Source: Candidatus Nomurabacteria bacterium
GTDB taxonomy: Bacteria; Patescibacteriota; Patescibacteriia; HK-STAS-PATE-3
NCBI GenBank assembly: GCA_023898465.1
Contig: CP060223.1
Coordinates: forward strand, 448,001-512,000
Reading direction: 5' to 3'
Length of the DNA stretch: 64,000 nt
Below are positions 2,459 through 49,407 of the stretch, piece after piece; within the stretch, counting starts at the first letter, position 1; the number at the start of each line of letters is the position of its first letter. The translations under genes were made by a program, and so were the position numbers. The notes below the pieces were generated by a model that did no database searches, had not been told where the DNA came from, and was given only the letters and a program-made list of their open reading frames with translations.

Positions 2459-2594
2459 ACAGTAAGGCCACCGAAGTAATAATAATTCCAACGCTTAATC
2501 CTAATAAAGGCGCTTGGTTTTCGATACTGGCTGGCAAAAGCAAGCGAAATAGCCAAGTAAAAAAATGTGCTGGAGCATATACTATGTCACTCAT
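2400..2594 (-). CDS. Small hypothetical transmembrane protein (64 aa)
   Basis: Its start overlaps the stop of the upstream GT4 in an ATGA-type overlap at 2591-2594, suggesting translational coupling, and it has one or two hydrophobic helices. It overlaps the 3' end of the convergent gene by 59 nt, so it may be spurious. Confidence 0.25.
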   Translation of the reverse strand: MSDIVYAPAHFFTWLFRLLLPASIENQAPLLGLSVGIIITSVALLFILRWLLGSDTRRNRELDR

Positions 2595-3667
2595 ACACCA
2601 AGAGTAAAGTGGTAAATTTTTCTTCGTAGGTCTGCCCAGCTCGGCATAGTTTGCGCGTACTTACGAGCTGCATCACTCATACCCGAAACAACCTCGTCAT
2701 GGCGAAGCATTTGATACATTGCTTGCTCAAGCGCCTGTGCATCATTTGTTGGAATAAGTACGCCTCGCTCATTGTCTCCAATTAATTTCGGCACACTTCC
2801 CACCCGAGTGGCAATTACGGGCGTTCCCAGGGAAAACGCTTCAATAATAACACGTGGGACCGCTTCACTTAATGAGGGTAAAATAAGCGCCTGACTTCGT
2901 GCCATTTCACGCAGGACTTCATCATGAGACAGCTCTCCCAATATCTTAATGTGAGAAGCAAGCCATAAGTCTGTGCGAATCTCTTTTTGCAACCATTTGA
3001 GATCTTTTCCTGTTCCGATAATTTTTAGTTGGCAGGCTGTGTTTGTCTTACCAATTGCCCGCATAGCCTCAATTAATACATCTAAACCTTTTGCTTTTTT
3101 AAGTAAGCTGCCCACAAAGATAAATTGATTTGACTCTCGTCTTGGAAGATCCTTTGGTAAGGTGCTAGGAACGAGAGAAGAAATTTCTAAAATGCGTGCT
3201 TCGGCAATTCCCATATCACGGATTCTCTGCGTTACCGCCTCACCAACGGTCAGGTATTTTGGCTTACGTCCGAAACGCAGCAGCCAGAGTGGCGCTTGCA
3301 TATCTTGCACGTCGTAAACTATTGGTATTCCTAATGTTATACTCGCAAAAACTACCCCTAAGGTTATTGCCGTACTAGAATGCACTTGCACGACGTCAAT
3401 CTTTTTTCTAAGGCGAAAAAAAAGTATCCAAAAAAAAGTCCACAGTGGTAAAAGGAGTATGCGGATGAGAAAAAAAGAGCGCACCACACTCGGCAGAGCA
3501 GGGTGAAAATGTATGGATGATCCTGTGATTTCCTTTCCAGTCCAGGTAGTCAATAGATGCACCTCAAGATGCTCGGGGACTTCTGCCACGAGTTCTGCAT
3601 AATATTGGGCTGCCCCGCTTCCTTCGGGTGGAAAGGAAGGTGTGACAATAAGGAGTCGCTTACTCAT
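2591..3667 (-). CDS. Glycosyltransferase family 4
   Basis: Starts MSKRLLIVTPSFPPEGSGAAQYYAELV. C-terminal half reads FIFVGSLLKKAKGLDVLIEAM...LPSLSEAVPRVIIEAFSLGTPVIATRVGSVPKLI, the GT4 EX7E-type region. The likely start is at 3667 (internal Met of the 375-aa track ORF), 4 nt from the upstream stop. Confidence 0.8.
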   Translation of the reverse strand: MSKRLLIVTPSFPPEGSGAAQYYAELVAEVPEHLEVHLLTTWTGKEITGSSIHFHPALPSVVRSFFLIRILLLPLWTFFWILFFRLRKKIDVVQVHSSTAITLGVVFASITLGIPIVYDVQDMQAPLWLLRFGRKPKYLTVGEAVTQRIRDMGIAEARILEISSLVPSTLPKDLPRRESNQFIFVGSLLKKAKGLDVLIEAMRAIGKTNTACQLKIIGTGKDLKWLQKEIRTDLWLASHIKILGELSHDEVLREMARSQALILPSLSEAVPRVIIEAFSLGTPVIATRVGSVPKLIGDNERGVLIPTNDAQALEQAMYQMLRHDEVVSGMSDAARKYAQTMPSWADLRRKIYHFTLGV

Positions 3668-4688
3668 GTCGCTCTTCCTTGAGCCAACGTACGATCGCGT
3701 CAGCCATAGCATCAACATCCCCTGGAGGCACTAATTTTCCTTTACCACGAAAAACCTCTGCATGCGGTCCCACACTAAAAGCAATAACAGGCTTAGCAAA
3801 CTCTTGCGCCTCGGCAAAAGGCAGGTTAAAGCCCTCCCATTGTGTCGCAGTGACATAGAGATCGCAGGCTGCGTAAAACTTTGGCAAATCTTCGTCTGAC
3901 ACAAAACCGATAAAATGCGTATGTGGTCCAGCTGCCCGTTTCAGTTGCGCAAGATATTTCTCAAAAGTTGCTTTTCCTACAATTAACAAATGCGCATCCG
4001 GAATTTGCTCACGCACTTTACTAAATGCACTTAAGAGCATGTGAAAACCTTTATGCGGAGATAAGCGCCCAACAGTAAGTAGGACTGGCGCATCACCCAG
4101 CTCCAGATGCGCGCGAATTTCGTCACCCGAAACCGCTTCACGAAATCGCTCCTTATCAACCGTGTCATGTACGACACGCGAGACGCGACCTGTTTCTTCT
4201 TTACATACTTCTGCTAAAAAGCGACTAATAGAAATAATCTCATCCGGATCTCGTAAGGAGCGATTCGTTAGCCAGCGAAAAATCGTGATGTATATTTTTT
4301 CAGTCCAAGTAGAAAAAGTATTAGCTGGTGGAATGCCGTGATTGTAGTAGACATAGCGAGTTCCCCACTCTCGCTGCATTTCATGTGCTAAAGCGTTGAG
4401 AGGATACTGATGACTATACACCGTATCCTGCTTTCCTAAGCTTTTCATAGCTGAACGAATTTTTGCTCGATCTAGAGCAAAAAACCCTAAGCGATACACT
4501 CGCTGCCAAAAAAGCGACTTCGGCATACCCAACACAAATACCTTGTAATGCTCACTCTTCATGTCACCCTCTAGACACACGACCGTCACTGTATGACCCT
4601 CCGCACTGAGCGACTCAGCTTGTTGTGCCACAACTCGATCAATTCCAGAAAAGCGAGAAAATGTACCGGTAAGTAAGGCTATATTCAT
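3660..4688 (-). CDS. Glycosyltransferase family 4
   Basis: MNIALLTGTFSRFSGIDRVV...LLTVGRLSPHKGFHMLLSAF...TATQWEGFNLPFAEAQEFAKPVIAFSVGPHAEV, typical GT4 motifs. Overlaps both neighbouring genes by 4 nt. Confidence 0.8.
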   Translation of the reverse strand: MNIALLTGTFSRFSGIDRVVAQQAESLSAEGHTVTVVCLEGDMKSEHYKVFVLGMPKSLFWQRVYRLGFFALDRAKIRSAMKSLGKQDTVYSHQYPLNALAHEMQREWGTRYVYYNHGIPPANTFSTWTEKIYITIFRWLTNRSLRDPDEIISISRFLAEVCKEETGRVSRVVHDTVDKERFREAVSGDEIRAHLELGDAPVLLTVGRLSPHKGFHMLLSAFSKVREQIPDAHLLIVGKATFEKYLAQLKRAAGPHTHFIGFVSDEDLPKFYAACDLYVTATQWEGFNLPFAEAQEFAKPVIAFSVGPHAEVFRGKGKLVPPGDVDAMADAIVRWLKEERHE

Positions 4689-5819
4689 CCTAGTTGCGAA
4701 TAAACGCTACGAAGCTTCTGTCCGATTTCCTGCCAGTCATAGCGTTGACGGGCTAAGTTCTGACCAGCTTCACCTAGCTGACGCGCGTAATCATCATTGC
4801 TCAATATCGCTCGTATTGCGTCCTCAAGCGCGTGCGTATTTCCTGGAGGATATAAAATGCCACCTACCCCATTTTCAGTAACTTCGAGGGTGGGTGGCAA
4901 CTCGCTACTTACATAAGGCGTGCCAAGGGCCATTGCTTCAGCCAAGACAATCCCAAAGCCCTCAACTGAGGAAGGGAGACAGAGAATATGACTCTTTGCC
5001 ATTGTTTCTAAGACATCGACATGTTTTTCCACGAAGCCGGAAAAATGCACTCGATCCGAAACACCCAGCTGCTCAGTTAGGGCTTCTAACTTGGCTTGCT
5101 GTGGACCGCTACCGATAATTTTCACCTGCAGATTTGGCATATCATTCCGCAGCTCAGCTACTACTTCCAATAAATCAGGTATACGTTTGTAATTCACTAG
5201 GCGGCCAACAAAACAAATAGTTGGGTCATCATAGCGTTCAAGGTTTTTAGGCAGACGAGTGAAGTCAACTCCGTTTGGTATTACGGCAATACGCTTTGGA
5301 TCCATACCATGCCGCAATAGCTTCGCACGAGTAGCGGTACTCACTGCGATAACTTTATCCCAAAGGAATTTTAAAAAGCGGCGTTCTACAAATTCACCGA
5401 AGAGACTAGAAGAAAACCAAGGTTAGCCCGCCACTCACCTATCCACACATCATGATAGGTTGCTACCGCGCGAATTTTCTTTTTCTTGGCAATAGTGATA
5501 GCTGCTTGATAAAGCAGGAAATTTGTCCCCTCAACTACGTCAATATCTTTTTTAAGCGCAGTTGCAATCACATTACGCATAAATATGTAGCGCTTCAGTA
5601 AACCGCCTGATTGAGTGAAAGAACGCGAGGACCGCAACGAATAACCTCAATACCAGGTAGTGGTTCCTGAGTCAGGTGTCCTTCTTGTGCGGCAATGACA
5701 GTTACTTTATGCTCTTTTGCTAACTCTAGTGCCGAGTAATATGTGCGTGCTTCTACACCGCCCCGAAAATCAAGATCTGCTGTGTATGGGAAAAATTCTG
5801 CAAGAATGAGGATCTTCAT
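4685..5819 (-). pseudogene. Glycosyltransferase family 4, disrupted by at least two frameshifts
   Basis: Three consecutive minus-strand ORF fragments tile one GT4: 5595-5819 (MKILILAEFFPYTADLDFRGGVE, N-term), 5386-5637 (middle, ...ATYHDVWIGEW) and 4685-5344 (C-term, ...VIPNGVDF...CLPSSVEGFGIVLAEAMALGTPYV). Frame changes lie near 5600-5640 and 5345-5390. Confidence 0.6.
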
Positions 5820-5820
5820 A

Positions 5821-6155
5821 TTATTCTTTTTTATCCGTTTCTTTACGTAGTGCTAACTCGCGGACAATCGTGGTTATCTCCTGTTCCAAATGTTCAATCT
5901 TCATCATCACTCGGAACAGCGCATACACTAAACCAATGACCGAGATGTAGAGAATAGCATCGACGCCTCGTCCAACGCCGAGGAATTTAGCAAGATACTC
6001 AGTTAATCGAGGTAAAAGGACTATAACACTGATGCCCAGCCAAATAAGAAGCCAAAAAAGAATTCTTTGGCAGTAATATCCTTTTTGCGTAACGATATGC
6101 AGTCCGTACAACCACGAAGAAGGCAAACACAATAACGAGAATCTGTATCAGCATA
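5821..6155 (-). pseudogene. DUF2304-like small membrane protein (GtrB/DPM-synthase partner), frameshifted
   Basis: The N-terminus MLIQILVIVFAFFVVVRTAYRYAKRILLPK reads from ATG (rc of 6153-6155), 3 nt after the GT2 stop. The remainder (FWLLIWLGISVIVLLPRL...KIEHLEQEITTIVREL) is in another frame. The switch falls at an A6/T6 homopolymer near 6054-6059. Confidence 0.45.
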
Positions 6156-6158
6156 GTC

Positions 6159-6838
6159 TTATTTCAATAATCGAAGTAATAACAATCGAAAAAAAGTTCT
6201 TACACCCTCTCCAAAACTCTGTCCTTTTGACATTGAGTATTCAGTATAGATTGCAGCAATTGGCACTTCGCTTAGACGGAAAGCGTGCCGCTTCACCTCA
6301 TACATTATTTCCGTAGACACCTCCATGCGATTTGACTGCAGATGCAGGGTGCGAGCAGCCTGTCGAGTAAACTCCCGGAGGCCTGACTGACTATCACTCG
6401 TCTGTAATCCAAACATGAATAAGGTGATCCGATTTCCTATCGCGTTATACAGCCGACGACGCAAAGGCATCCTAGGCTGCGTCTTATCGCGGACAAGCAT
6501 ACGTGAGCCTACAACAACATCAGCTACACCTTTTTCAAGCGGCTCAATAATGCGTAGTATATCTTTTGCTTCATGCTGACCGTCAGCATCAAAGGTAACA
6601 ATGTATTCTGCGCCAGCTCGGATGGCAGCCTGAATGCCGGTAGCAAGCGCTCCACCAAGACCTCGATTAATGAGGTGGCGATACACCCGTGCACCTGCTG
6701 CTTGAGCTATCTGACCACTACCGTCACTAGAACCATCGTCAATAACAAAACATCCGGCGTGACTGCACGGACTGCGCGCACCACATCAGATATAGTCTTT
6801 GCTTCGTTAAATGCAGGAATAACAATTGCCACCTTCAT
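6159..6838 (-). pseudogene. GT2 polyprenyl-phosphate glycosyltransferase (DPM synthase/GtrB-like), frameshifted
   Basis: The N-terminus MKVAIVIPAFNEAKTISDVVRAVRAVTPDV from ATG (rc of 6836-6838) runs into a stop. The continuation VIDDGSSDGSGQIAQAAGARVYRHLINRG...FDADGQH...SRM is in the frame of track ORF 6159-6686. A single-base deficit sits in a T4 run near 6748-6756. Confidence 0.55.
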
Positions 6839-6987
6839 GGCACAAATTACTCTACTAAAAAGCGGTCAAAAATGCAAGGGGTCACGCTATAAAAAATCCA
6901 AACTTAGCGTGCTGATTAATAAAAACAACGTGCCTTTGTGATCACGCCTATTGTGACTTGTCACTTTAGCCACTATGATGATACCGA

Positions 6988-8267
6988 ATGCCACTCCCAA
7001 ATCCGCAACTCCAAAACTTATATACTGACGCAAAAAAGGATTTTACCTTAGCCTTTCGCACTGGGATGCTGCACCTATTAAGCAGTTCCGGTATTGTCCA
7101 AATCTCTGGCTTTGTGGTTACACTTGTGCTTGTCCGCGTGCTCAGCACGGAATCGGTCGGGCATATTCGCCTCATTCATTCCGTACTGGACTTTCTCATC
7201 CTCTTAGGTGATTTTGGCTTAGCCATGGCGATGTTGAAATATATTGCCGAGCCAAATGACGAGGAGGAGAAAAAATCACTGCTTAGTCATGCCAGTTACG
7301 GAATTCTTTTCACTTCTTTGCTCACAGCCCTTCTGGCTTTTGGACTAAGCTTTATACCAAACTTAATTGGCGATGCGACAGCGCAAGCAGCGTTACGTTG
7401 GATGGTTTGGCTGATCCCCTTGCGACGCTTTTGGCATAGTTGTGCACTGGGAACATGGCCGAAAAAGAATCAAGCAAAAAGCATGGTATGAATTAGCCCA
7501 GCGGCTTGTACTTGTTGTCCTTACCTTAGGTGGACTTCTTTACGCTGGATATTCAGGATACCTCTACGGATTCGCTATTGGTATGGCACTTGTGACGCTT
7601 ATTTTACTGAGCCGACTACCCCAAGGCTGGTGGAGCCATCGTATGTAAAAGAAAAAATGCGCAAGCTTTTTGCTTTTGGCTGGTACGCCATGCTGGCCAA
7701 TCAATTCCAAGTTGTTGTAGTAACTGCTGATGTCGTCATGATTAGTTTACTCACTCGCGATGCGGTTGATGTGGGAATCTACAGTGTGATGGCGCTTTCA
7801 TCCGAGGACTTTGGATACTTCCAAATGCCATCATGCAAACTGCGCTTCCATATCTCTCGGAACAATCTGCTGATACGAATCAATTACAACAGAGCATCAA
7901 ACGGATCAGCACAAAATGGCCATGCTGATGCTGCCACTCTGCGCCTTACTTTTCTCCTGGCTCCCACGCTTATCCCTTACTCTTTGGAAGAGACTACGAG
8001 AGTGGAATAAAGGTCTTTCAGGTTCTGATCCTCTCACTCTTTTTCAGCTCATTGGCCATGGTCAACTATACCGCGCTTTTAAGTTTAGGTAAGGTAAAAT
8101 TTAACTTTTATACAGTACTTATTGAAGCCCTAGTCAACATTGTCTTGAATTACTGGCTGATTTCGCAACTTGGGATGATCGGTGCTGCCTGGGCAACAGT
8201 GGTCACCTTTGCACTACGGTATGGGATAAACTCATTTTTCCTCCGACGACAGCTTAAAACTGCTTGA
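6988..8267 (+). pseudogene. Wzx-type polysaccharide flippase (MOP superfamily), multiple frameshifts
   Basis: Track ORFs 6988-7491, 7442-7648, 7630-8010 and 8052-8267, plus an unlisted frame reading LPNAIMQTALPYLSEQSAD, each carry consecutive Wzx-like segments (VRVLSTESVGHIRLIHSVLDF...; ...DAVDVGIYSVMALS...; ...GMIGAAWATVVTFALRYGINSF). That implies at least 4-5 frame changes over 1.3 kb. Confidence 0.6.
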
Positions 8268-8368
8268 CAAAATAGAGGGATTTGCTAATTTCTGCGTGAC
8301 GGTGGCGACCTGACAAAGGGGCCGCTGTATTCATGTTGAGTAAAGTACTCACATGAGGCACGCACGTT

Positions 8369-8398
8369 GACAATCTAAACTAACGAAGCGTAAGTTGC
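8369..8398 (+). promoter_or_regulatory. Sigma70-like promoter candidate for the GC-rich cassette
   Basis: Perfect TTGACA at 8369-8374, a 17-18-nt spacer, and a weak -10 (TAAGTT) at 8393-8398. A GGAGG Shine-Dalgarno at 8406-8410 lies 5 nt before ATG 8415. Confidence 0.3.
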
Positions 8399-8414
8399 GC
8401 GTTTGGGAGGATGC

Positions 8415-8960
8415 ATGAAAACGCTCAGTTTTTTGCTGATGTTGCTTAGCTTTGGCTTGGCAACACCGAGCTTGGCACAGCTCACGCTGCGCCATGGGAC
8501 ACTCATGCCAGGTAATGGTATGAGTGAATCAGCGCAATACCGTCTGGTGAGCGTCATCGGATGGGCTGACCTTAGCCAACATGCCGATACTACTTGGGTA
8601 CTGATCGAAGGGCCGTGGATTCCTCGGAACCATGACACCTCGGCAGTGGGAGGACCTGAAACTCAGGCACACCGCCTAAGCCTCTCGAACATTCAACCCA
8701 ATCCGATTGGTCAATCCGGTCTGATTCACTTCAATGTCCCTGGGATCAATGGAGAGAAATCGCCCCTTACCATGGCAATCTATGACGTCACCGGGCGTCG
8801 AGTACGCACACTGGTCTCAGGCGAGATGCAATCCGGTCCACAGGTTGCTATCTGGGATGGACGAGACGACAGTGGAAAGGCGCTGGCGAATGGCATCTAT
8901 TGGTGCCAAATTCAGTGCAAAAACAACAGGGCAACCAAAAAGCTGGCGGTTATCCGCTAA
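8415..8960 (+). CDS. Small secreted protein with T9SS/Por-type C-terminal sorting domain (TIGR04183-like CTD)
   Basis: Signal peptide MKTLSFLLMLLSFGLATPSLAQ. The C-terminal ~75 aa (LSNIQPNPIGQSGLIHFNVPG...MAIYDVTGRRVRTLVSGEMQSGPQVAIWDGRDDSGKALANGIYWCQIQCKNNRATKKLAVIR) fit the type-A CTD pattern. The ATG is preceded by a GGAGG SD. Confidence 0.6.
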   Translation: MKTLSFLLMLLSFGLATPSLAQLTLRHGTLMPGNGMSESAQYRLVSVIGWADLSQHADTTWVLIEGPWIPRNHDTSAVGGPETQAHRLSLSNIQPNPIGQSGLIHFNVPGINGEKSPLTMAIYDVTGRRVRTLVSGEMQSGPQVAIWDGRDDSGKALANGIYWCQIQCKNNRATKKLAVIR

Positions 8961-8978
8961 GTAGAAGGAGATGAGATC

Positions 8979-10502
8979 ATGTTGAAGTTCCAGAGTCTCT
9001 GTATTTTGGTGGCGCTTTGTTGTGCCACGCTCGTCTTTGCTTCTGTGCCAAACCTGCTCACCTACCAGGGCTACTTGGAAGATGGTGGACAGGCAGCCAA
9101 CGGCAGCTACAACGTCACCTTCCTGCTCTACGATCAGGCAAGTGGCGGTACCAGCCTCTGGGAAGAAGTACAAACCGGTCTCGCGGTCCAGGACGGACTC
9201 ATGCAGTCATACCTCGGCCGGATCACGCCGCTTCCCAGCAACCTCGATGAGATCGAAACCCTCTATCTCAGCGTCGTTGTGCAGGGTGACACTCTGCAAT
9301 CACGCACCGAGCTCGCTTCTGTCCCCTACGCCTTCCGCGCCAAGCTATCTGAACACGCAGTCTATGCTGATTCGGCCGGAAATGGCGGAGATAGTGGTAG
9401 TGGATTCTGGGCAGCGAACGGCAACGATATCCATAACACCAATTCTGGGTTTGTGGGGATCGGGACGGAGAATCCAAACGAGCCCCTACATGTTGAAGGA
9501 CAAGGCATAGATTGGGCTGCCAGATTCACAAACAGTGATGGAAGCAGCAGCTCAGACGTGCGCTTGGCCTACAGAACTGGCGCTGGCATCTACATGAACA
9601 CCACTGGAACTACTAGTGGGTACTTCATGAACTTGAAGCATGAAGATCTCACAAAGGTCTATCTCACGAAGTCAGGCTACCTTGGGCTTGGTACGGATGG
9701 TCCAATTTCACAGCTCCACGTGGTGAACCCGGTCAACGCGGGGGCTGGAAACATCTTCAACATCGACCGAACGAACGACGTCACAAAGCAAACCTACATG
9801 GGCTTCCGTACGCACACGCTGCAGGACGCCTTCATAGGTGTGCCGGCAAACACGACCAACACGCTCACCTTTGGGTATGCCGGAAGCGCCGAGCTTATGC
9901 GTTACAACGCAAACGGGCTCGGTATTCGCACCACCAATCCGCAATTCACACTCGATGTGAACGGGAATACCAATTCAAGTCAGTACTACCTGGCCGGGCA
10001 CCAGATCGCCTACACTACTGGCGGCGGATCTCTCTTTCGTCTCAAGGACCCAAGCGGTGCAGACCGTGTTGAGTTCCAGGGGAACGGAGGCGATCTGCTC
10101 TTGGTGGGACCTGTCCGTATCAACGGCGACCTCTGCGTCACTGGTCAGAAAAACCGTATTGTGGAAACACCTTACGGCACTCTGGCTTTGAATGCTGAGG
10201 AATCGGCCGAAGCTTGGTTCTCTGCCAGCGGCGAAAGTCAGCTGGAAAACGGCCGAGCCCAAGTCGAGCTGTCTGAACGCTTCCTCGCGACCGTGGTCGT
10301 TTCTGATGAGCATCCTATGCAAGTCAACGCGACCTTCTATGGAGCGCACGGCGGCGGATGGTACGTGGAGCGTGGGCTGAACAGCTTCACTCTCGTCGAC
10401 CCCAGCGGGAGTAATGCACCGTTCACTTGGACGGTCAAAGCTCGCCAAAAAGGTTACGAAGACGTGAATCTCCGCGTTGTCGCGCCAACAGATGGGAGGT
10501 GA
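8979..10502 (+). CDS. Secreted tail-fiber-domain-like repeat protein
   Basis: Signal peptide, then the hallmark N-terminal motif LTYQGYLEDGGQAANGSYNVTFLLYDQASGGTSLWEE, then repeated VGIGTENPNEPLHVEG, LGLGTDGPISQLHVVN and LGIRTTNPQFTLDVNG units as in phage tail-fibre/collar-domain proteins. AGGAG SD sits 8 nt upstream of the ATG. Confidence 0.6.
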   Translation: MLKFQSLCILVALCCATLVFASVPNLLTYQGYLEDGGQAANGSYNVTFLLYDQASGGTSLWEEVQTGLAVQDGLMQSYLGRITPLPSNLDEIETLYLSVVVQGDTLQSRTELASVPYAFRAKLSEHAVYADSAGNGGDSGSGFWAANGNDIHNTNSGFVGIGTENPNEPLHVEGQGIDWAARFTNSDGSSSSDVRLAYRTGAGIYMNTTGTTSGYFMNLKHEDLTKVYLTKSGYLGLGTDGPISQLHVVNPVNAGAGNIFNIDRTNDVTKQTYMGFRTHTLQDAFIGVPANTTNTLTFGYAGSAELMRYNANGLGIRTTNPQFTLDVNGNTNSSQYYLAGHQIAYTTGGGSLFRLKDPSGADRVEFQGNGGDLLLVGPVRINGDLCVTGQKNRIVETPYGTLALNAEESAEAWFSASGESQLENGRAQVELSERFLATVVVSDEHPMQVNATFYGAHGGGWYVERGLNSFTLVDPSGSNAPFTWTVKARQKGYEDVNLRVVAPTDGR

Positions 10503-10505
10503 GGG

Positions 10506-12284
10506 ATGAGATGGATTCTCTCGGTCCTACTCCTGGCTCTTGCGAGTAGTGCCTTTGCCGTACAACCAAATCTTCAGCTTCCCTTTGCTGAAGGGACCGT
10601 TCACAAATGTACGCAAGGTGCCAATGGCGAGTACTCACATCAGTACACTTCAACACGTTACGACATCGATCTAGACACGATCAACAATGGCGATGAAACG
10701 TTGTACGCCCCAGTATCCGGAACCGTCTATCTGCATGATGAAGGTGAATCCGGATTCGGAAAACACGTAAACATCGACGTTGGAGACAACACTTTTGTTC
10801 TCCTTGGGCATTGCAAGAGCTTTCTTGTTTCTGATGGACAGCAGATAACAACAGGGATGCCTGTTGCGCTTGAAGGCTGTACAGGAAATTGTTACGGTGA
10901 TCATGTACACTTTGGTCTGCACACTGGAAACCCTCAGATAGGCGCTTCAAGTAGCACATCAATTGTTGCCGAACACATCTGGGCTAGGGATGTGACCGCG
11001 GGTGGAGAATTTCGATTCTTCCGAAGCGATGAATTCATAGGCGATTTGACTAGTGGCCACAACTACGAGACTGGCTATTTAGGCACACCCTACCTCTGTT
11101 CTCCTGCTGGTCAAGATCCACCCGCTGCCCCGCCATTCTGGACCAAGCCTGGCGACATCAAATCATACTTGGCGAGATTCAGAAATACGGGAACGGCAAC
11201 GTGGATTGATAGCGGAGGCGTTGGTACGAATAACTACGTTGAACTACGATCGGTGTTTCAGAACGGCACACCCAAAAACTGTTGGCTTGAGCCAGTAGAT
11301 TGGATTGGGTGCCCTGCATCCTGCAACACTCAACGAGTAACCTCGTTTGACGAAGGGACAGTCGCTCCTGGTCAAACTGCAACATTCACCTTCCAGGCAC
11401 GAACACCAAATGTTCCAACTGACCTTGACGGTGAAGTAGTGTACTTCCGCCCCTTCCACGGAGCAGACATCGGAATCGACGGATGGGGGGAGATGAACTT
11501 CCTTATCTATGTCGACGCCGACGCGCCGCAGGTCCCGCCGAACTTGAGCGTGAACCCGTCAGACTGCACGAGCACCAACTCGTTCTTCTTTGACTGGGAT
11601 GCTTCGAGCGACGTGGGTAGTGGACTGGATCTCTACGAGTGGCAAATCAACGGATCTACACCGAACTCCACGACTAGTACTTCGGTACAAGTGAATGGGA
11701 GTCAAAGCGTTCACCCGGGCACCAACGTCTTCTACGTCAGAGCCTTGGATAAGGTCGGAAACGTGAGTGGAATGGCCACGGTGGAATTCTGCTTCGAAAC
11801 CGACTGCAACCTCAGCTTCAACCGAGACGACGACGGCAATAGTGTGCCTGACGGATGGACGGCTGACCCTCATGGAGGTTCAAGCTATAGCTGGCCGCCT
11901 GGAGGCATTGGAAGCAACTCACACTACGTACGTATTGTGAACGCTGATGGAGATGATTGGATGATCTATACTCGCACCAACTGCGATCAGATCACGCCAG
12001 GACAACTCTACCGAATCGGCTTCTGGTACAACACCACCTCCACGGCTCCGTTCGAGTGGGCACTGTTCAAGAGTAGTGTTTCAACTGGTCAACGAAGTCT
12101 GAACGCCCTCGTGAGCAACCCAACCGCAGACGGGCAGTGGCATCAATTCCAAAGTGAACCCTTCACAATCAACTCCGGCGACCTCAGCACCTACCCGAAA
12201 TTCGGGGTAAAGGTACCGCCGGGATCTGTCGGAACCTTCAACTTCGACGAGGTCTTCTTCGTTGAAACTGAGCTGTGTCAATAG
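10506..12284 (+). CDS. Secreted M23 family metallopeptidase with C-terminal Fn3-like and carbohydrate-binding-like domains
   Basis: Signal peptide MRWILSVLLLALASSAFA. The M23 motifs are HVNIDVGD (HxxxD) and GDHVHFGLH (HxH). The downstream SDVGSGLDLYEWQING segment is Fn3/PKD-like, and a ~190-aa beta-rich C-terminal domain follows. Confidence 0.65.
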   Translation: MRWILSVLLLALASSAFAVQPNLQLPFAEGTVHKCTQGANGEYSHQYTSTRYDIDLDTINNGDETLYAPVSGTVYLHDEGESGFGKHVNIDVGDNTFVLLGHCKSFLVSDGQQITTGMPVALEGCTGNCYGDHVHFGLHTGNPQIGASSSTSIVAEHIWARDVTAGGEFRFFRSDEFIGDLTSGHNYETGYLGTPYLCSPAGQDPPAAPPFWTKPGDIKSYLARFRNTGTATWIDSGGVGTNNYVELRSVFQNGTPKNCWLEPVDWIGCPASCNTQRVTSFDEGTVAPGQTATFTFQARTPNVPTDLDGEVVYFRPFHGADIGIDGWGEMNFLIYVDADAPQVPPNLSVNPSDCTSTNSFFFDWDASSDVGSGLDLYEWQINGSTPNSTTSTSVQVNGSQSVHPGTNVFYVRALDKVGNVSGMATVEFCFETDCNLSFNRDDDGNSVPDGWTADPHGGSSYSWPPGGIGSNSHYVRIVNADGDDWMIYTRTNCDQITPGQLYRIGFWYNTTSTAPFEWALFKSSVSTGQRSLNALVSNPTADGQWHQFQSEPFTINSGDLSTYPKFGVKVPPGSVGTFNFDEVFFVETELCQ

Positions 12285-12320
12285 CTTGGAGGGGCTATTC
12301 CAGCATACATCGCACTTTCA

Positions 12321-12358
12321 CGCGCCTTCAGGCCAGCAACTTGGAGGCGCGTTTTTCT
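12321..12358 (+). terminator. Rho-independent terminator closing the GC-rich cassette
   Basis: Stem cgcgcct (12321-12327) pairs with aggcgcg (12345-12351) around a 17-nt loop, followed by TTTTT (12352-12356). Confidence 0.45.
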
Positions 12359-12361
12359 TAC

Positions 12362-12390
12362 TTTTCAAAATGACCAATTTTTAGTATACT
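12362..12390 (+). promoter_or_regulatory. Weak sigma70-like promoter candidate upstream of 12425 gene
   Basis: TTTTCA (12362-12367), a 17-nt spacer, then TATACT (12385-12390). An AT-rich leader follows with no clear SD. Confidence 0.25.
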
Positions 12391-12424
12391 CTAGCCTGAA
12401 CTTTTATCCTTTTTTTGCCAAAAA

Positions 12425-13936
12425 ATGTCAGAAAAACAAGAGAAGGCCAGTCGCTACCTCATTTCTATAGTAATTGGCTTTTTTATTGTATTTGGATTGG
12501 GTTTGCTAAACAAAAACCTTGCGTTTTTTGGTCAAAATCTTAGTTTTTCCCTTGATTTTCCTGCAAATGATAAGGTGCTCAGAGCTCTTCCAGCCATCAA
12601 TGAAACTACAGAAATTGGCGAGAACCCTGCAAACGGGAAGCAGTACGCGATTCAACGTCATACCATAACGACGCCCGAGACCAATATTTGGCTAAAAATA
12701 CCAGAAACACTGCAGTTAAGCGAAAAAAATCATCTCAGCGTTTCAACTGAATTTGATCCCAAACACCTCGATAGTTTAGAGCTTTCACTCGTCCACCCCA
12801 GTGGAATTAGCTATGACCTAGGGCCAATATACTCCGCCCAGCTCGAAGCTCTAGAGTGGAGCTCAATCACCCAGGACGGCGTTACTCTGTGGCAACGAAA
12901 CCCAAGCTACGCATCCATACAGGATTTCTACAAAAACCCACCGAAATCTGATGCAGAAACGCCTGTAATTGCCACTTTTCATGCCGCTCTCAATCCAGTG
13001 CTCCAGAGCGAATTTCTCGCTAATCTTCCTGAAAAAAAGCAATTAGAAAGTTCCCTACCCTATCTCGAGGGACCTTATACAACCTATACCCTGCTATTGG
13101 AAAGCGGCTCTCTTCATATTCACCTAGATGTACAGGAGCTTAATTTTTACGAAGGACCAGATCCGACCGAAATAAACGTTTTTGATCAATCTGGTGAGCT
13201 AATATATGTCACCACGCTTCCAGATGATGGCGTAGTAAGCGCCTCTAAAGTTCGAACCCCACTTCGTGCTATAGATTTTACCCTCGAGGGGCTTAATCCT
13301 GGAATGTATCGAGTTGAGGTTGATAATCCAGATATTCAGTCAAAACTAAGCACAAATCAACAATATGTTGTTTTAGCAAGCTCCCCGTTGCTTGTTGATA
13401 ACGTGTATAACAGCAGCGCAAATCCTCTAACTCTATACACAAATTCTCAAAATATTGATTTTCCTGCCTGGCATATTGACGCCAGCGCACAAAATATCAG
13501 TTTAGATGGTCACCAGATAACACTCGCTTCTGACCGACAAGTTGGCAGCTCAGTGCACTACAGCTTCCCTAACCTCGCTACAGCAAAAAATCCACACAGT
13601 ATTCAATTAGGTACCAATCATGCACTTATTGAAATAGATAAAAGCGCTGTTATTGCTTTTGATGCATTTGCTTATTTTAACCCTTTTACTATCCCAACTC
13701 GTCGTCTCACTGCCGATACTACCAAAGATACTTCAATAGAATACGTCTTAGCACGTTACGAAAAACAAAATCCGGTGAATGGAAGATACTTGCTGAATCG
13801 CGATTTCTACTTTGATAAAAGCTTCCTCAACGAAGACAATGGCCTGCAAATACGCTATAGCGCTGATACTCGCCTGGGATCCCCTCAATATCGCCTGCAA
13901 AAAGTTGACGTCTCAATCACTCGCTCTACTGAATAA
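12425..13936 (+). CDS. Hypothetical membrane-anchored extracytoplasmic protein
   Basis: 503-aa ORF with an N-terminal TM helix (YLISIVIGFFIVFGLGLL) and no recognisable catalytic motif. Low-GC host-type composition. Confidence 0.5.
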   Translation: MSEKQEKASRYLISIVIGFFIVFGLGLLNKNLAFFGQNLSFSLDFPANDKVLRALPAINETTEIGENPANGKQYAIQRHTITTPETNIWLKIPETLQLSEKNHLSVSTEFDPKHLDSLELSLVHPSGISYDLGPIYSAQLEALEWSSITQDGVTLWQRNPSYASIQDFYKNPPKSDAETPVIATFHAALNPVLQSEFLANLPEKKQLESSLPYLEGPYTTYTLLLESGSLHIHLDVQELNFYEGPDPTEINVFDQSGELIYVTTLPDDGVVSASKVRTPLRAIDFTLEGLNPGMYRVEVDNPDIQSKLSTNQQYVVLASSPLLVDNVYNSSANPLTLYTNSQNIDFPAWHIDASAQNISLDGHQITLASDRQVGSSVHYSFPNLATAKNPHSIQLGTNHALIEIDKSAVIAFDAFAYFNPFTIPTRRLTADTTKDTSIEYVLARYEKQNPVNGRYLLNRDFYFDKSFLNEDNGLQIRYSADTRLGSPQYRLQKVDVSITRSTE

Positions 13937-15187: not shown

Positions 15188-16146
15188 ATGAAATAACAAC
15201 CACTAAAGCATTTTTTTCAGTCGTCGTACCGGTCTATAACGAAGTCGAGGCTGTGGCTAGTCTTCATGCTGAGATTCTTCAGATCATGCAGACGATGCAA
15301 AAACCTTTTGAGATTATCTTTGTAGACGACGGAAGCAGAGACGGCACATTTGAAAAATTACAATCTCTACATCCGATTACGATTATCCGTTTGCGAAAAA
15401 ACTTTGGACAGACCGCTGCACTGGACGCTGGTTTTAAACATGCTCAAGGGGAAATTATTTTTACCCTGGACGGTGATGGACAAAATGATCCAGCAGACAT
15501 ACCTGGACTTTATGCGAAGATTGAAGAGGGGTATGATGTGGTTTCTGGGTGGAGAAAAAACCGAAAAGACACTTTTTCGAAGCGCTTTTTGTCTCGTGGA
15601 GCAAACTTCCTTCGCGGATTTCTAGTAGCAGATAAAATTAAAGACTCTGGCTGCACGCTCAAAGCATATCGAAGAGAATGCTTCGAGGACTTGGACCTCT
15701 TCGGTGAAATTCATCGTTTCATACCGGCAATTCTAGCGTGGAAAGGTTTCCGCATCGGCGAAATAGTCGTTAATCATCGCGCTCGAACCACTGGCCGAAC
15801 AAAATACAACTGGCGCCGCGTGATAAAAGGTTTTGTCGATATGGTAAGCGTCTGGTTTTGGCGAAAATACTCTAGCCGTCCTCTCCATCTTTTTGGCGGT
15901 CTTGGCATATTGGCTGGAGCCGCTGGTCTCGTCTTAGGACTTTACCTTGCCATTGCTCGACTAATGGGAATTATCTCACTCCAAAACAGCATCTGGCCAT
16001 TGATTTCTGTTTTTCTGATCCTAGCTGGCATCCAATTATTTATTTCTGGACTCCTGGGTGATATTGCTATCAAGACTTACTACAACGGCAAACGGCAAAT
16101 CTACACCATACGTTCAATTACCACATCGCGTAGAGAAAATTCATGA
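15184..16146 (+). CDS. GT2 polyprenyl-phosphate glycosyltransferase (GtrB/CsbB/DPM-synthase-like) with C-terminal TM helices
   Basis: FSVVVPVYNE...IIFVDDGSRDGT...DGDGQND GT-A motifs, then two C-terminal hydrophobic helices (LHLFGGLGILAGAAGLVLGLYL; PLISVFLILAGIQLFISGLLG). ATGA overlap with the upstream gene. Confidence 0.8.
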   Translation: MNEITTTKAFFSVVVPVYNEVEAVASLHAEILQIMQTMQKPFEIIFVDDGSRDGTFEKLQSLHPITIIRLRKNFGQTAALDAGFKHAQGEIIFTLDGDGQNDPADIPGLYAKIEEGYDVVSGWRKNRKDTFSKRFLSRGANFLRGFLVADKIKDSGCTLKAYRRECFEDLDLFGEIHRFIPAILAWKGFRIGEIVVNHRARTTGRTKYNWRRVIKGFVDMVSVWFWRKYSSRPLHLFGGLGILAGAAGLVLGLYLAIARLMGIISLQNSIWPLISVFLILAGIQLFISGLLGDIAIKTYYNGKRQIYTIRSITTSRRENS

Positions 16147-17273
16147 GTCGAATACTGTTACTTAATTACGAGTTTCCACCTCTTGGTGGTGGCGCTAGTC
16201 CACTTAGCTACGAGCTAGCTCGAGGATTTGTGCAAAATGGCCATTCAGTCACTGTTGTCACAATGGGCTATAAAACCCTCCCTCGATATGAAGAAAAAGA
16301 CGGTATGCGGATCTTTCGACTCCGTTCAGTTCGAGCAAAAAAAGAGATATGTACGCCATGGGAACAATTCACATTCATCATCTCCGCTTTTTTCTTTTTC
16401 ACAAACCATTTAAAAAAAGAAAAATATGACGTTAATCATACGCATTTTTTAATACCTAGTGGAATTATTTCATGGTGGCTCAAAAAAAAATATCAATTGC
16501 CTTATGTCGTTACCAGTCACGGTAGTGATGTTCCTGGCTTCAACGATGATAGATTTAAGCTTCTTCACAAATTTACCGGCCCAATACTCCGCTTGGTAAG
16601 CAATAATAGTGATAAAATTATTGTTCCCTCAAAATATCTAGGAACCCTCATTGAAAAGAATATTAATTCTGCATTACATAGTAAAATTTATTACATTCCT
16701 AACGGCATAGATGAAAAGAAGTTTGTGCCACAAGAAAAGAAAAAAATCATTCTTTCCACTGGACGATTATTACCAAGAAAAGGTTTTCAGTATTTGATAA
16801 ATGCAATGGCAAAAGAAAACTTGGGATATGAATTACACATTGCTGGTGATGGTCCTATGATGACAGAACTTCAAAAGCTAGCAAGTAACGCAAAAAGTAA
16901 AATAGTTTTTCATGGTTGGCTTGATAATCTTAGCCACGAATACAAAGAACTTCTTGAATCCGCTGCCATTTATAGTTTGGTTTCACCTAAGGAAAACGCA
17001 AGTGTCGCCTTACTTGAGGCGATGAGCGCGGGCTGCGCTATAATCACCAGCAGTTCGGGTGGAGCAGCAGAAACAATGGGTGAGGCCGGTATTACCATAG
17101 AAGCAAAAAACCAAACAAGTATCAATGAAGCGCTGCGTCATCTCACCACCTCCAGTGAAGAGATTCAACGCTTAGGTCAACTTGCCCGCAAACGCGTGCT
17201 TGAAAAATTTAGCTGGACAACTGTATTTCATCAATATAATCAACTATTCACACCTTACGGAGTTAAACTATGA
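16143..17273 (+). CDS. Glycosyltransferase family 4
   Basis: ILLLNYEFPPLGGGASPLSYELARGF N-terminus and LSTGRLLPRKGFQYLINAM...SPKENASVALLEAMSAGCAIITS C-terminal GT4 region. Confidence 0.8.
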   Translation: MSRILLLNYEFPPLGGGASPLSYELARGFVQNGHSVTVVTMGYKTLPRYEEKDGMRIFRLRSVRAKKEICTPWEQFTFIISAFFFFTNHLKKEKYDVNHTHFLIPSGIISWWLKKKYQLPYVVTSHGSDVPGFNDDRFKLLHKFTGPILRLVSNNSDKIIVPSKYLGTLIEKNINSALHSKIYYIPNGIDEKKFVPQEKKKIILSTGRLLPRKGFQYLINAMAKENLGYELHIAGDGPMMTELQKLASNAKSKIVFHGWLDNLSHEYKELLESAAIYSLVSPKENASVALLEAMSAGCAIITSSSGGAAETMGEAGITIEAKNQTSINEALRHLTTSSEEIQRLGQLARKRVLEKFSWTTVFHQYNQLFTPYGVKL

Positions 17274-18151
17274 AAAAGATAAAACTGCTATTCATCCTTG
17301 CCTGGCGAAATCTGCGTTGGACTTTTATTAAAGCAATTCACCTAAATGGCCAAATATCCGTACAAGTGTATGGAAAGAAAATTGTTCTCTATCTTAATCG
17401 TGTTGGATTAGACATCAAGGAGAATAATATTTTTAAACAGCTCGCTTTAGATCATAATCGCGAAGCTGAGGCCTCTAAGGTAATGCTAGACTTTATCGAG
17501 CCTGGAGACGAAATTTTTGAAGCCGGCGCAAATATTGGCTACTACGTTTTACTTGAAGCGAGTCGACTACAAGGCCAAGGTAAAATTTACGCAATTGAGC
17601 CAGATCCTAGTAACTACGAGCTACTTAAAAAAAATGTGGAGTTAAATGAACTGCAAAATTATGTTGATGTCCGTAAACTATCGGTCAGCGATAAAGTCGG
17701 TCACTCAGAATTTTTCCTAAGTAAGGATTCTAACCTGCACAGCTTCCTTCCGAGCGAAAATGATGAAGAGAGAACCTCAATTATGGTAGAGACAACTACC
17801 ATTGATGCCTTCTTAGCAGATAAACCAAAGGTTAACTTTATCCGAATGGACATAGAAGGCTATGAATGTCGAGTTATTTATGGGATGAAACAATTCCTTG
17901 CTAAGCCTGGCCCTTTAAAACTTTTTATTGAGCTGCATCCAAAGCTGGTTTCAAGGGAAGAAATGTTGAATTTGCTTACCATTTTGGAAGAAAGCGGTTT
18001 CACTATACATAAAGCAATCTCGCGAGATAACTATCTTCGGAAGCAGCTAGGACAAACCACTGTTGAGGAAATGACTATGGCTGAATTAAAGAGCGATCCG
18101 CGCTTGCTGGAAGAAAAACGCTCATTTGAAATGTTTTTCATAAAAAAATAA
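17270..18151 (+). CDS. FkbM-family SAM-dependent methyltransferase
   Basis: EAGANIGYYVL...IYAIEPDPSNYELLKKNVELNEL...SVSDKVGHSEF...FIRMDIEGYE, the FkbM-domain signature. Confidence 0.75.
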   Translation: MKKIKLLFILAWRNLRWTFIKAIHLNGQISVQVYGKKIVLYLNRVGLDIKENNIFKQLALDHNREAEASKVMLDFIEPGDEIFEAGANIGYYVLLEASRLQGQGKIYAIEPDPSNYELLKKNVELNELQNYVDVRKLSVSDKVGHSEFFLSKDSNLHSFLPSENDEERTSIMVETTTIDAFLADKPKVNFIRMDIEGYECRVIYGMKQFLAKPGPLKLFIELHPKLVSREEMLNLLTILEESGFTIHKAISRDNYLRKQLGQTTVEEMTMAELKSDPRLLEEKRSFEMFFIKK

Positions 18152-18152
18152 C

Positions 18153-19031
18153 ATGACCCAGGATGCTCAAAAACATCCCCTACTCACTGTCTGTATAGTT
18201 CACTACAGAAGGCTTGAGCAGCTCCAAAAAACAATAGATGCTCTTTTTCAAAATACCCGTACTGCATTTCTTCTCCGTGTGTATAACAACGGATACGAGG
18301 ATGATGGAATCAGGGAGTATCTAGATGGTATTAATCAGCGTAGCGATACTACGGTTATCTTTGACACAAAAAATATCGGCTGCTCCCCTGCTCGACACGA
18401 AATTGTAAAAAATATTGAGACACCCTTCATCCTCATGCTTGATGATGACATGTATGTAAATAAAGATTGGGACGTCCCCGTATTTAAAAAATTTGCAGAA
18501 AATCCTACGATTGGCGCTATTGGATTTTCAATTTATAAAATTGATGGGAGCTTCTGGTGGACAGGTGGACGCAATATTATTCTATCAAAAAAAGAAATTA
18601 AAATAGAGCGACCTCATATCGATCCAGAAAAATCAGACCTTGATTTTATAGAGCTTGATGATGTTGCCGCGGGGGCAATGATTTATCGAAAAGAACTTGA
18701 GGATATTATCGTTTGGGACAAGAATTATTTTATCGGCTTTGAGGATCTGGAGAAAGGTCTACATTTAAAACAGAGCAAATATTCCTGTCTCGTCTCAATT
18801 CAAAGTAAATTTATCCACGACAAAATATCTGAGAAACAGGAATACGCTGCTTATAACAATGCACGACGAAATTACCACGCCTACCGGAGAAGTTATCTAC
18901 ATTTTCTAAAGGAAAATAGATATCGTCTTGATTTGAAGCGCCATCTTTTCTACAAATATGTTTGTCTTCTTCCGAATAACATTCTGCAGAAGTTGGTATA
19001 TACTTGGTTAAGCATAAAAAAGAAGGGTTAG
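18153..19031 (+). CDS. GT2-like glycosyltransferase
   Basis: LLTVCIVHYRRLEQL...LMLDDDMYV (DxD-type) then GFEDLE, a GT-A-like arrangement. Confidence 0.6.
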   Translation: MTQDAQKHPLLTVCIVHYRRLEQLQKTIDALFQNTRTAFLLRVYNNGYEDDGIREYLDGINQRSDTTVIFDTKNIGCSPARHEIVKNIETPFILMLDDDMYVNKDWDVPVFKKFAENPTIGAIGFSIYKIDGSFWWTGGRNIILSKKEIKIERPHIDPEKSDLDFIELDDVAAGAMIYRKELEDIIVWDKNYFIGFEDLEKGLHLKQSKYSCLVSIQSKFIHDKISEKQEYAAYNNARRNYHAYRRSYLHFLKENRYRLDLKRHLFYKYVCLLPNNILQKLVYTWLSIKKKG

Positions 19032-19032
19032 T

Positions 19033-21904: not shown

Positions 21905-21905
21905 T

Positions 21906-23033: not shown

Positions 23034-23045
23034 GAATCCATTCAG

Positions 23046-23747: not shown

Positions 23748-23756
23748 TAATCCCAT

Positions 23757-25061: not shown

Positions 25062-25064
25062 GGC

Positions 25065-26030: not shown

Positions 26031-26031
26031 T

Positions 26032-26985: not shown

Positions 26986-26990
26986 TACCT

Positions 26991-27938: not shown

Positions 27939-27940
27939 CC

Positions 27941-28831: not shown

Positions 28832-28858
28832 CCATTTAGTATTCAGAAAAGTAAGCAT

Positions 28859-32057: not shown

Positions 32058-32059
32058 TA

Positions 32060-46569: not shown

Positions 46570-46913
46570 AGATCCTCCTACATAAGTTAATAGTTTGAAG
46601 CTATCTCTATATGTATTACCTGAGGGCGAAGAGCATTCTTTCACTTCCACAATGGGGATGAAAAAACCGAGGAGGCAGTTGGCGTTCACTCGGATTCCCC
46701 TGGCGCAGCTGGTGCTGTAGTTGCAGTCCTTTGCTGAATAGATTGTATGTTTAGGTTACTCGCCACAAAAGCACATGTCAATATTGACGCTAGGTAAAAA
46801 CTCTTGTGCAATAATATTTTTTAGTTCGGGGAATCGAAAATCGCCTGCGAATGTTACAGCAGCTTCTTTGCTCTATGCAATTTACCCGTCTCAAGAAATA
46901 ATCTTCGCTGCGA

Positions 46914-49363: not shown

Positions 49364-49407
49364 GGCTTTCTTTGTGGAAACAGCATAGCAGCCTTTCCCC
49401 CCTGTCG

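Follow-up and report, generated by a model that had tools for sequence, protein, structure and literature searches.

Four fragmented glycan genes

Within the window, by which we mean the whole 64,000-nucleotide stretch of DNA analysed, the segment 4685–8267 carries genes for a GT4 glycosyltransferase, a DUF2304 protein, a GT2 glycosyltransferase and a Wzx flippase, each of which is broken across several reading frames. The longest open reading frame (ORF) in this segment encodes 219 aa, and the Pfam matches on the fragments are, in order, Glycos_transf_1/Glyco_transf_4, DUF2304, Glycos_transf_2 and Polysacc_synt/MurJ, in agreement with the four split genes and their order as given in a first-pass annotation of this DNA. 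That annotation had counted at least 7 frame disruptions; the disruption itself is borne out, but the true number of indels is 12 (GT4, 2; DUF2304, 2; GT2, 1; Wzx, 7), all of which lie between 5408 and 7973. The neighboring GT4 gene (3660–4688) is indeed intact and is identical to its counterpart in other assemblies.

The fragmented GT4 gene (4685–5819, minus strand) was recognized from Pfam matches on its fragments and is present in the window as three ORFs (4685–5344, 5386–5637 and 5595–5819). Comparison with other assemblies places its two deletions at ~5408 (GG to G) and ~5628 (GGG to GG), and the intact 378-aa version is present in contigs L008, L012 and L021. Among the matches listed, 120 of 120 GT4 homologues are single proteins of ~361–413 aa. 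The adjacent gene (5821–6154, minus strand) encodes a small DUF2304 membrane protein of the GacJ/Rv3632 family (PF10066, 3.4e-22 on a fragment). Relative to the intact 111-aa version, which is present in contigs L008, L012, L016 and L017, it has lost one base at 6053 (A7 to A6, 6054–6059) and one at 6081 (T6 to T5, 6082–6086).

Upstream of the intact DUF2304 gene, with 4 bp between them, is the gene for a GT2 polyprenyl-phosphate glycosyltransferase-like protein (PpgS/GacI-like; 6159–6838, minus strand; PF00535; 226 aa when intact), in which a single deletion at 6746 shortens A5 to A4 (6747–6750). This run, which reads T4 on the coding strand, and the A6 at 6054–6059 are the two homopolymers singled out in the first-pass annotation, both correctly. 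The GT2 gene also contains a CT/TC swap beside a C-run at 6372–6373 that changes Gly to Glu; the relatives L016 and L017 have Gly at this site, as does L012. Adjacent and divergent is the gene for a Wzx/MOP-family flippase (6988–8267, plus strand; Polysacc_synt/MurJ on fragments), whose intact 428-aa version is present in contigs L008 and L012. Its seven deletions are located at ~7415 (C5 to C4), 7428 (T5 to T4), 7637 (a single T lost), 7795 (T4 to T3), 7912 (A5 to A4), 7949 (T5 to T4) and 7973 (C4 to C3).

A further anomaly lies just outside the deletions. At 5282–5381 on the minus strand, the window differs from three other assemblies by 14 substitutions in 12 codons, and all 14 are synonymous. 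The first deletion is 27 bp away, and the tract forms the left boundary of the aberrant patch.

Elsewhere in the window, two lesions reported earlier take a different form. The histidine-kinase gene does carry a lesion, which is an in-frame TAA at 59904–59906 rather than a frameshift, and the T4SS lesion, placed at ~50.07–50.29 kb, consists of a 2-bp gap near 50284 together with the absence of ~680 bp that another assembly has. The boundary at 52578 was considered as the T4SS lesion and rejected, as the same 4-bp gene overlap is found in the Logan contig. The cassette described earlier as foreign and GC-rich has 53–55% GC versus a genome mean of 0.47, and is therefore only mildly atypical; the glycan locus at 16–34 kb (35–40% GC) is the stronger compositional outlier.

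Intact copies and the spectrum of missing bases

Logan assemblies of two separate SRA runs, SRR12358675 and SRR12358676, yielded contigs of 27–31 kb that are base-identical to each other and match the window at 1817–30823. Outside the patch they show 1 SNP in ~26 kb, and all four genes are intact in both (378, 111, 226 and 428 aa). Given their near-identity, their consecutive accessions and the two short-read kits mentioned for the HK-STAS-PATE-3 study (PMC8518188), these runs appear to be the same sample's Illumina libraries; a full-text literature search for the two accessions found no mention of them. A third sample, SRR14234116, likewise has the longer runs and intact ORFs, without the deletions. 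Two ~10%-diverged relatives (SRR7638773 and SRR17818317) also have the longer homopolymers, are gap-free and concur with Logan at all of the sites covered. In these relatives, synonymous changes far exceed nonsynonymous ones (42:2 in DUF2304, for instance), and the cassette is evidently under strong purifying selection in both. The comparison with related loci proposed in the first-pass annotation thus finds the split layout in no relative. In the same vein, the frameshifted products USN53960.1, USN53962.1, USN54057.1 and USN53964.1 were found only on the deposited MAG contig (1,082,586 bp). More distant searches returned little: species-representative genomes scanned with the intact GT4 gave only ~30%-identity relatives, JGI metagenomes scanned with the 378-aa GT4 gave only 26–28% relatives, and megablast of 2500–12500 against plasmids gave no match. 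Exact look-ups of the 167-aa Wzx fragment, CysS and the response regulator found no recorded protein.

When the 12 bases are put back, all four ORFs become whole again, and three of the products (GT4, DUF2304 and Wzx) match the Logan proteins exactly. In independent assemblies, other homopolymer lengths restore the reading frames, an outcome that the first-pass annotation had itself named as pointing to assembly error. The local clustering it described is also pronounced, with 12 indels in the 2,566 bp of 5408–7973 (a density of ~0.47%) versus none, and 1 SNP, in a comparable flank of 26.4 kb (26,441 bp; Fisher P = 2e-13 for the indels). Each of the 12 indels removes a single base from the window (sign test P = 5e-4), and 9 of them fall in runs of at least 4 bases, versus 8.4% expected (P = 4e-8). 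Runs of at least 5 bases are contracted in 7 of 23 cases inside the patch and in 0 of 226 in the flanks. The sole substitutions between 5408 and 7973 are the adjacent CT/TC swap in GT2, giving an indel-to-substitution ratio of 12:2, which is the reverse of natural decay.

Origin of the missing bases

With respect to the cause of this pattern, we consider it very probable (about 90%) that the four genes are intact in the organism and that the 12 missing bases are an assembly artefact rather than pseudogenisation, a reading for which per-base support was inferred from the other assemblies. Errors that are exclusively deletions, biased toward homopolymers, almost free of accompanying substitutions and confined to 2.6 kb suggest a patch of long-read consensus that escaped short-read correction. 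The window belongs to HK-STAS-PATE-3, a circular Patescibacteria MAG from an activated-sludge metagenome (Liu et al. 2021, PMC8518188) that is deposited as "Candidatus Nomurabacteria bacterium" and was assembled from raw Oxford Nanopore reads with Flye (--nano-raw) and then as a Unicycler hybrid with Illumina data (PMC8518188). Some 2.6–2.7 kb of it (5282/5408–7973) would be long-read consensus that was never corrected by short reads and that retains nanopore-type single-base homopolymer under-calls, the 12 missing bases shattering four ORFs. The patch may be a long-read bridge made by Unicycler, or a segment left unpolished in some other way, and reads of a ~90%-identical co-occurring relative probably tangled or broke the short-read graph. 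The size of the affected runs fits this source: ONT deletions occur in homopolymers of 2–8 nt, with a peak at 4–5 nt, and occasionally at a non-repeated base (PMC12007338). The ONT/hybrid "pseudo-pseudogenes" of the Kastor paper (PMC12007338) are similar in being deletion-dominated, homopolymer-tied frameshifts that vanish on correction. The errors described there are genome-wide, whereas here they occupy one 2.6-kb patch in an otherwise Illumina-accurate contig, and this confinement would suggest that short-read correction failed locally, for instance over a long-read bridge. A locally low-coverage assembly patch, which the first-pass annotation had offered as its alternative, is accordingly favored by the deletion-only spectrum and the intact loci in other assemblies.

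The synonymous tract at 5282–5381 calls for a separate account, as a pattern this codon-aware does not fit read error. The assembly path may have picked up an allele from a co-occurring relative, or the tract may stem from real recombination; a relative's reads in the assembly graph would also explain why an all-synonymous 14-SNP tract lies at the edge of the patch. Three other sources were considered and rejected. Gene conversion from a paralogous GT4 gene is not supported, as no similar sequence occurs elsewhere in the window. The closest homologue among the matches listed (P0020, 81% at the amino-acid level) has amino-acid differences in residues 147–180, where the tract is purely synonymous, and DGR-type mutagenesis does not fit changes that are not adenine-specific and are all silent.

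Several observations count against an error. Short-read correction would have failed in a region that Logan assembled contiguously, the deletion at 7637 lies outside a homopolymer, and contraction has reached only 30% of the patch's long runs. In addition, the MAG and the Logan strain are not one and the same: the tract is private to the MAG, which also differs from a Logan contig by 1.7% at 51.8–56.1 kb. Together, the private tract and this difference mean that a distinct subpopulation exists in principle. Such a subpopulation could have genuinely inactivated the block by homopolymer slippage, with the MAG capturing it and the short-read assemblies capturing the intact majority. Slippage is also homopolymer-prone, the MAG-private allele directly adjoins the block, the MAG and the Logan contigs are not clonally identical, and surface-glycan loci are often strain-variable. 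We nonetheless regard pseudogenisation as very unlikely. The 12 indels in 2.6 kb come with essentially no substitutions, and the 1 SNP per 26 kb of flank implies a divergence time far too short for 12 independent neutral indels. Substitutions should outnumber indels in a decaying locus, yet all 12 events are deletions, and seven of them are packed into 560 bp of Wzx. No other dataset contains the frameshifted proteins, purifying selection on the cassette is strong in relatives, and the source assembly includes raw-nanopore-derived sequence. The decaying Wzx-dependent glycan route suggested in the first-pass annotation is not supported, in view both of this lesion spectrum and of a locus that all other assemblies of the organism and its relatives carry intact.

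A known case of genuine decay makes the distinction clearer. In the O-antigen locus of Yersinia pestis, one of the pathogens that became host-restricted recently, several adjacent glycan-biosynthesis genes are frameshifted, as they are here. Such decay typically leaves each gene with few lesions, which recur in different isolates and on different sequencing platforms and come with substitutions, whereas the lesions in the present locus are unique to one long-read-assisted assembly.

It is also conceivable, and in our estimation highly improbable, that the deletions are real in a more specific sense, a recent local burst of homopolymer contractions having destroyed a GacIJK-like module in one subpopulation that coexists with the intact strain in sludge. 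Mismatch repair is often missing in CPR bacteria, and this MAG is ultra-small (1.08 Mb). If true, the window would capture the loss of a surface glycan as it happens, under pressure from phages or a host, for instance, through an unusual and locally concentrated form of slippage.

The remaining explanations can be given almost no weight. Functional split genes, programmed frameshifting or phase-variable contingency loci might be suspected from the several breaks in mononucleotide runs, as in the phase-variable surface-glycan genes of some pathogens, but the affected runs are 1–7 nt in the intact version versus the at least 8 nt typical of contingency loci, 12 sites across four genes would need to be "off" simultaneously, neither the relatives nor the listed GT4 homologues are split, and the data are explicable without a slippery site or stimulatory structure. 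Equally, the MAG could be correct and the automatic, uncurated k-mer-based Logan contigs wrong through over-called homopolymers or chimeras; against this, two runs are base-identical over 27–31 kb with a third sample in agreement, the Logan versions and not that of the MAG give full-length ORFs matching Pfam and distant homologues, and the ~10%-diverged relatives side with Logan, so that the concordance of five read sets effectively refutes it.

A proposed donor module and its significance

Returning to the favored reading, in which the four genes are intact, homology suggests that GT2, DUF2304 and Wzx form a GacI/GacJ/GacK-like (PpgS/Rv3632-like) lipid-phosphate-sugar donor module. By the same homology, the module would make and flip a polyprenyl-phosphate-linked sugar, and membrane GT-C transferases would then decorate a surface glycan. 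The best NCBIfam match of the GT2 protein is PpgS (9.4e-57, 192 bits, below the 370-bit cut-off), followed by AglJ. The same pairing of GT2 with DUF2304 is found in the M. tuberculosis polyprenyl-phospho-GalNAc synthase pair PpgS (Rv3631)/Rv3632, and positions 2–222 of 226 are aligned; with a score far below the equivalog cut-off, the protein is PpgS-like and not a PpgS orthologue.

The GacI/GacJ/GacK/GacL system, which glycosylates the side chain of the S. pyogenes group A carbohydrate (Rush et al., 10.1101/180810), has parts with likely counterparts in the present locus: a putative polyprenyl-phosphate GT2, an adjacent DUF2304 protein and a Wzx-like flippase, with candidate GT-C-type membrane proteins and an ABC exporter within the same glycan region. 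GacJ and Rv3632 are both DUF2304 proteins, and in S. pyogenes the small DUF2304 membrane protein stimulates the GT2 enzyme (10.1101/180810). The present host differs in being a CPR bacterium, and the likeness is one of protein families. The candidate GT-C transferases, two PMT_2-domain membrane proteins at 29547–34012, are 21 kb away, and ABC export would be by a fused PglK/MsbA-like protein, in contrast to the two-component GacD/E type. Modules of the GacI/GacJ/GacK type cooperate with ABC-transporter-exported polymers and GT-C transferases (10.1101/180810). The first-pass annotation had suggested a Wzx route being lost as the ABC-transporter/GT-C locus takes over; the architecture would be of the GacI/GacJ/GacK type and not that of a rival O-antigen pathway, and the donor module probably works with the ABC/GT-C locus instead of being replaced by it.

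If the missing bases are artefactual, the public entry for this "complete" CPR genome includes at least four spurious protein fragments (USN53960.1, USN53962.1, USN54057.1 and USN53964.1), and such patches would inflate pseudogene counts drawn from it, as well as inferences that Patescibacteria have reduced their genomes or lost pathways. For hybrid MAGs in general, local clusters of deletion-only, homopolymer-biased frameshifts are best treated as unpolished long-read sequence until reads disagree. In terms of biology, the corrected locus would place a module of GT2, DUF2304 and Wzx in a CPR (ABY1) bacterium, beside a large ABC/GT-C glycan locus; in Gram-positive bacteria, modules of this type decorate ABC-exported wall polysaccharides.

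Intact counterparts of the fragmented genes

The first-pass annotation was correct in describing broken GT4, DUF2304, GT2 and Wzx genes at 4685-8267, where the longest ORF is at most 219 aa; the rest of the window is mostly filled by long clean ORFs. Specifically, domain matches on fragments place GT4 domains at 4685-5819, DUF2304 at 5821-6154 and GT2 at 6159-6838, all on the minus strand, and a Wzx/MOP flippase at 6988-8267 on the plus strand. The fragments are deposited as separate proteins on the NCBI contig (USN53960.1, USN53962.1, USN54057.1 and USN53964.1). By exact-sequence look-up, the window proteins correspond to entries named 'MAG: Candidatus Nomurabacteria bacterium' (locus tags H6760_*, proteins USN539xx), and no frameshifted product was found outside this one contig.

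An exact match to the 342-aa protein of the adjacent intact GT4 gene (3660-4688) gave access to the Logan contigs, which are assemblies of separate SRA runs. In a 27.5-kb contig from SRR12358676 each of the four supposedly decayed genes is an unbroken ORF (378, 111, 226 and 428 aa), and the same is true of a 31.5-kb contig from SRR12358675; the two are base-identical over the region and jointly cover window positions 1817-30823. The third run, SRR14234116, contributes a 1.6-kb contig whose two private SNPs mark it as representative of an independent population. It encodes a 378-aa GT4 identical to the Logan version, and shares the Logan state at 5408, at 5628 and at all 14 positions that are substituted in the window at 5282-5381. 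Orthologous loci are also covered by contigs from two unrelated runs, SRR7638773 and SRR17818317, which are ~10% diverged at the DNA level and show zero gaps relative to the intact version across the GT4-N, DUF2304 and GT2 segments. Synonymous to nonsynonymous codon changes in these two contigs number 42:2 and 41:2 for DUF2304, and 30:6 and 48:12 for GT2. This predominance of synonymous changes indicates that the cassette is conserved under purifying selection in the lineage. Moreover, all 120 listed database homologues of the GT4 are unsplit proteins, with lengths of about 361-413 aa.

Nature and origin of the sequence differences

Over positions 1817-30823 the window differs from the Logan contigs at 29 sites, 28 of which fall within 5282-7973. 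These comprise 14 substitutions (5282-5381), 12 single-base gaps that delimit a 2,566-bp patch (5408-7973) and an adjacent CT/TC swap (6372-6373); the sole difference elsewhere is a SNP at 11887. In every one of the 12 gaps the base is absent from the window: in GT4 at 5408 (GG to G) and 5628 (GGG to GG); in DUF2304 at 6053 (A7 to A6) and 6081 (T6 to T5); in GT2 at 6746 (A5 to A4); and in Wzx at 7415 (C5 to C4), 7428 (T5 to T4), 7637 (a lone T), 7795 (T4 to T3), 7912 (A5 to A4), 7949 (T5 to T4) and 7973 (C4 to C3). Nine of the gaps lie in runs of at least 4 bases, as against 8.4% of patch bases in such runs (P about 4e-8), and runs of at least 5 bases are contracted in 7 of 23 cases in the patch versus 0 of 226 in the compared flanks. 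The clustering of indels is equally marked, with 12 in 2,566 bp versus none in 26,441 bp (Fisher P = 2e-13).

Adding back only these 12 bases yields ORFs of 378, 111, 226 and 428 aa, and three of the four proteins are then exactly those of the Logan contigs. The repaired GT2 differs by a single Gly to Glu change, which is due to the swap at 6372-6373. The affected position is Gly in the two diverged relatives. The swap, which adjoins a C-run, is probably a further consensus error that would persist through a repair confined to frameshifts.

R9-era nanopore consensus is characterised by deletion-only, homopolymer-biased errors at a density of ~0.5% with substitutions nearly absent. Where the short-read graph is interrupted, Unicycler bridges the break by long-read consensus. 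The source metagenome-assembled genome, HK-STAS-PATE-3, is one circular contig of 1,082,586 bp with a GC content of 0.47, assigned to Patescibacteria; ABY1; UBA10025 (Liu et al. 2021, Microbiome 9:205, PMC8518188, supplement). It was produced by assembling raw Nanopore reads with Flye (--nano-raw) and binning, followed by recruitment of long reads at >=70% and short reads at >=80% identity and two rounds of Unicycler hybrid assembly, and its own authors note that a higher error rate persists in long-read contigs despite short-read polishing (PMC8518188). Nanopore deletions are reported to accompany homopolymers of 2-8 nt, those of 4-5 nt most frequently, and now and then to remove a non-repeated base (PMC12007338).

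The patch, with its deletions, its homopolymer bias and its density of ~0.5%, has this nanopore profile, which points to long-read consensus as its origin. Taken together with the intact ORFs of the Logan contigs, these observations support the assembly patch that the first-pass annotation had offered as its fallback, and we put the probability that the frameshifts in the four genes are artefacts at roughly 0.9. The patch would then be long-read-derived sequence left uncorrected by short reads, with a Unicycler long-read bridge as the likely specific mechanism. That the gaps instead mark a real subpopulation with a local burst of slippage mutations is highly improbable. Genuine decay of an ancestral Wzx-dependent route, the reading first favoured, is not credible: the genes are intact in other assemblies, and a 2.6-kb stretch would have had to accumulate 12 independent neutral indels with substitutions nearly absent, in a genome separated from the intact strain by one SNP across 26 kb of flank. 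The fragmentation of the block is no real biological feature.

The 14 substitutions at the left edge of the patch are of another kind. Relative to three other assemblies, all 14 are silent within 100 bp, two codons (AGA/CGG and TTG/CTA) being hit twice, and they are private to this genome; they cannot be read errors. No donor match was found elsewhere in the window, and the closest database homologue (81% aa) was ruled out as a donor. The density (14%) and silence of the tract resemble the divergence of ~90%-identical relatives in other sludge-type runs, which a 70-80% recruitment threshold would allow to be co-assembled. This resemblance leads us to infer that the assembly took a short chimeric path via a strain bubble bordering the trouble spot, with genuine recombination as the alternative. 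Either origin leaves the decay hypothesis unrescued.

Other features of the window

The T4SS coupling protein gene (TrwB/TraG-like, 49956-52581) is broken by a 2-bp gap near 50284/50285, within a 95%-identity stretch relative to the Logan contig L018. At window 50074-50084, ~680 bp of L018 (positions 307-984) are absent; in L018 they hold the coupling-protein end and the greater part of a 232-aa membrane protein. Strain variation, misassembly and true loss of sequence are all candidate causes of this absence. Intergenic positions 49366-49400, with two homopolymer-type differences from L018 (G6 versus GGGG-T and A3 versus A4), may be another poorly corrected spot, and 49.3-50.4 kb as a whole is a candidate for a further patch of this kind. 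The histidine kinase gene (59052-60506) is indeed interrupted, as the first-pass annotation held; the lesion is a nonsense codon and not a frameshift, namely an in-frame TAA at 59904-59906, shortly past the H-box (FHDLINPL), beyond which the frame runs on into the HATPase_c domain.

The segment 51799-56142 is 98.3% identical to the 4.3-kb Logan contig L013, with 71 mismatches that are clustered and often spaced in multiples of three; its 333-aa AAA protein is identical to the L013 version despite 11 SNPs. The pattern is a sign that the sample contains a second strain, or else that this mobile-element-like region is present there in a paralogous copy. The GC-rich cassette (9000-12000, 53-55% GC) is base-identical in the Logan contigs except for the SNP at 11887. 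Its products are a FlgD_ig/Por_Secre_tail protein, an M23 peptidase and two further proteins with no Pfam match. Relative to the genome mean of 0.47, it is the ABC-transporter/GT-C glycan locus (16000-34000, 35-40% GC) that deviates more strongly in composition. Secreted subtilase/FG-GAP and TSP3-repeat proteins occupy 39.7-46 kb, and a Host_attach/baeRF_family12 protein at 46033-46689 adjoins the DNA polymerase III tau gene; these proteins could bear on the episymbiotic lifestyle of CPR bacteria.

Proposed role of the intact glycan module

With respect to function, the best NCBIfam match of the intact GT2 is the polyprenyl-phospho-GalNAc synthase PpgS (E = 9.4e-57, full length, 192 bits against a 370-bit cut-off), followed by archaeal AglJ. 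Two members of the DUF2304 family have a partner enzyme that they bind and stimulate: GacI in the case of S. pyogenes GacJ, and PpgS in that of M. tuberculosis Rv3632 (10.1101/180810). In S. pyogenes, GacI/GacJ generate GlcNAc-P-undecaprenol, the Wzx protein GacK is the proposed flippase, and the GT-C enzyme GacL transfers the sugar onto polyrhamnose exported by an ABC transporter (10.1101/180810). By homology, the window holds candidates for the parts of this Gac system. Within 5.8-8.3 kb these are the GT2, DUF2304 and Wzx genes; elsewhere they are a PglK/MsbA-like ABC exporter (19033-20823) and two PMT_2-type membrane proteins (29547-34012). The first-pass annotation had suggested that the ABC/GT-C locus replaces the Wzx route; given these homology-based parallels, the module would more plausibly be a partner of that locus than its superseded rival.
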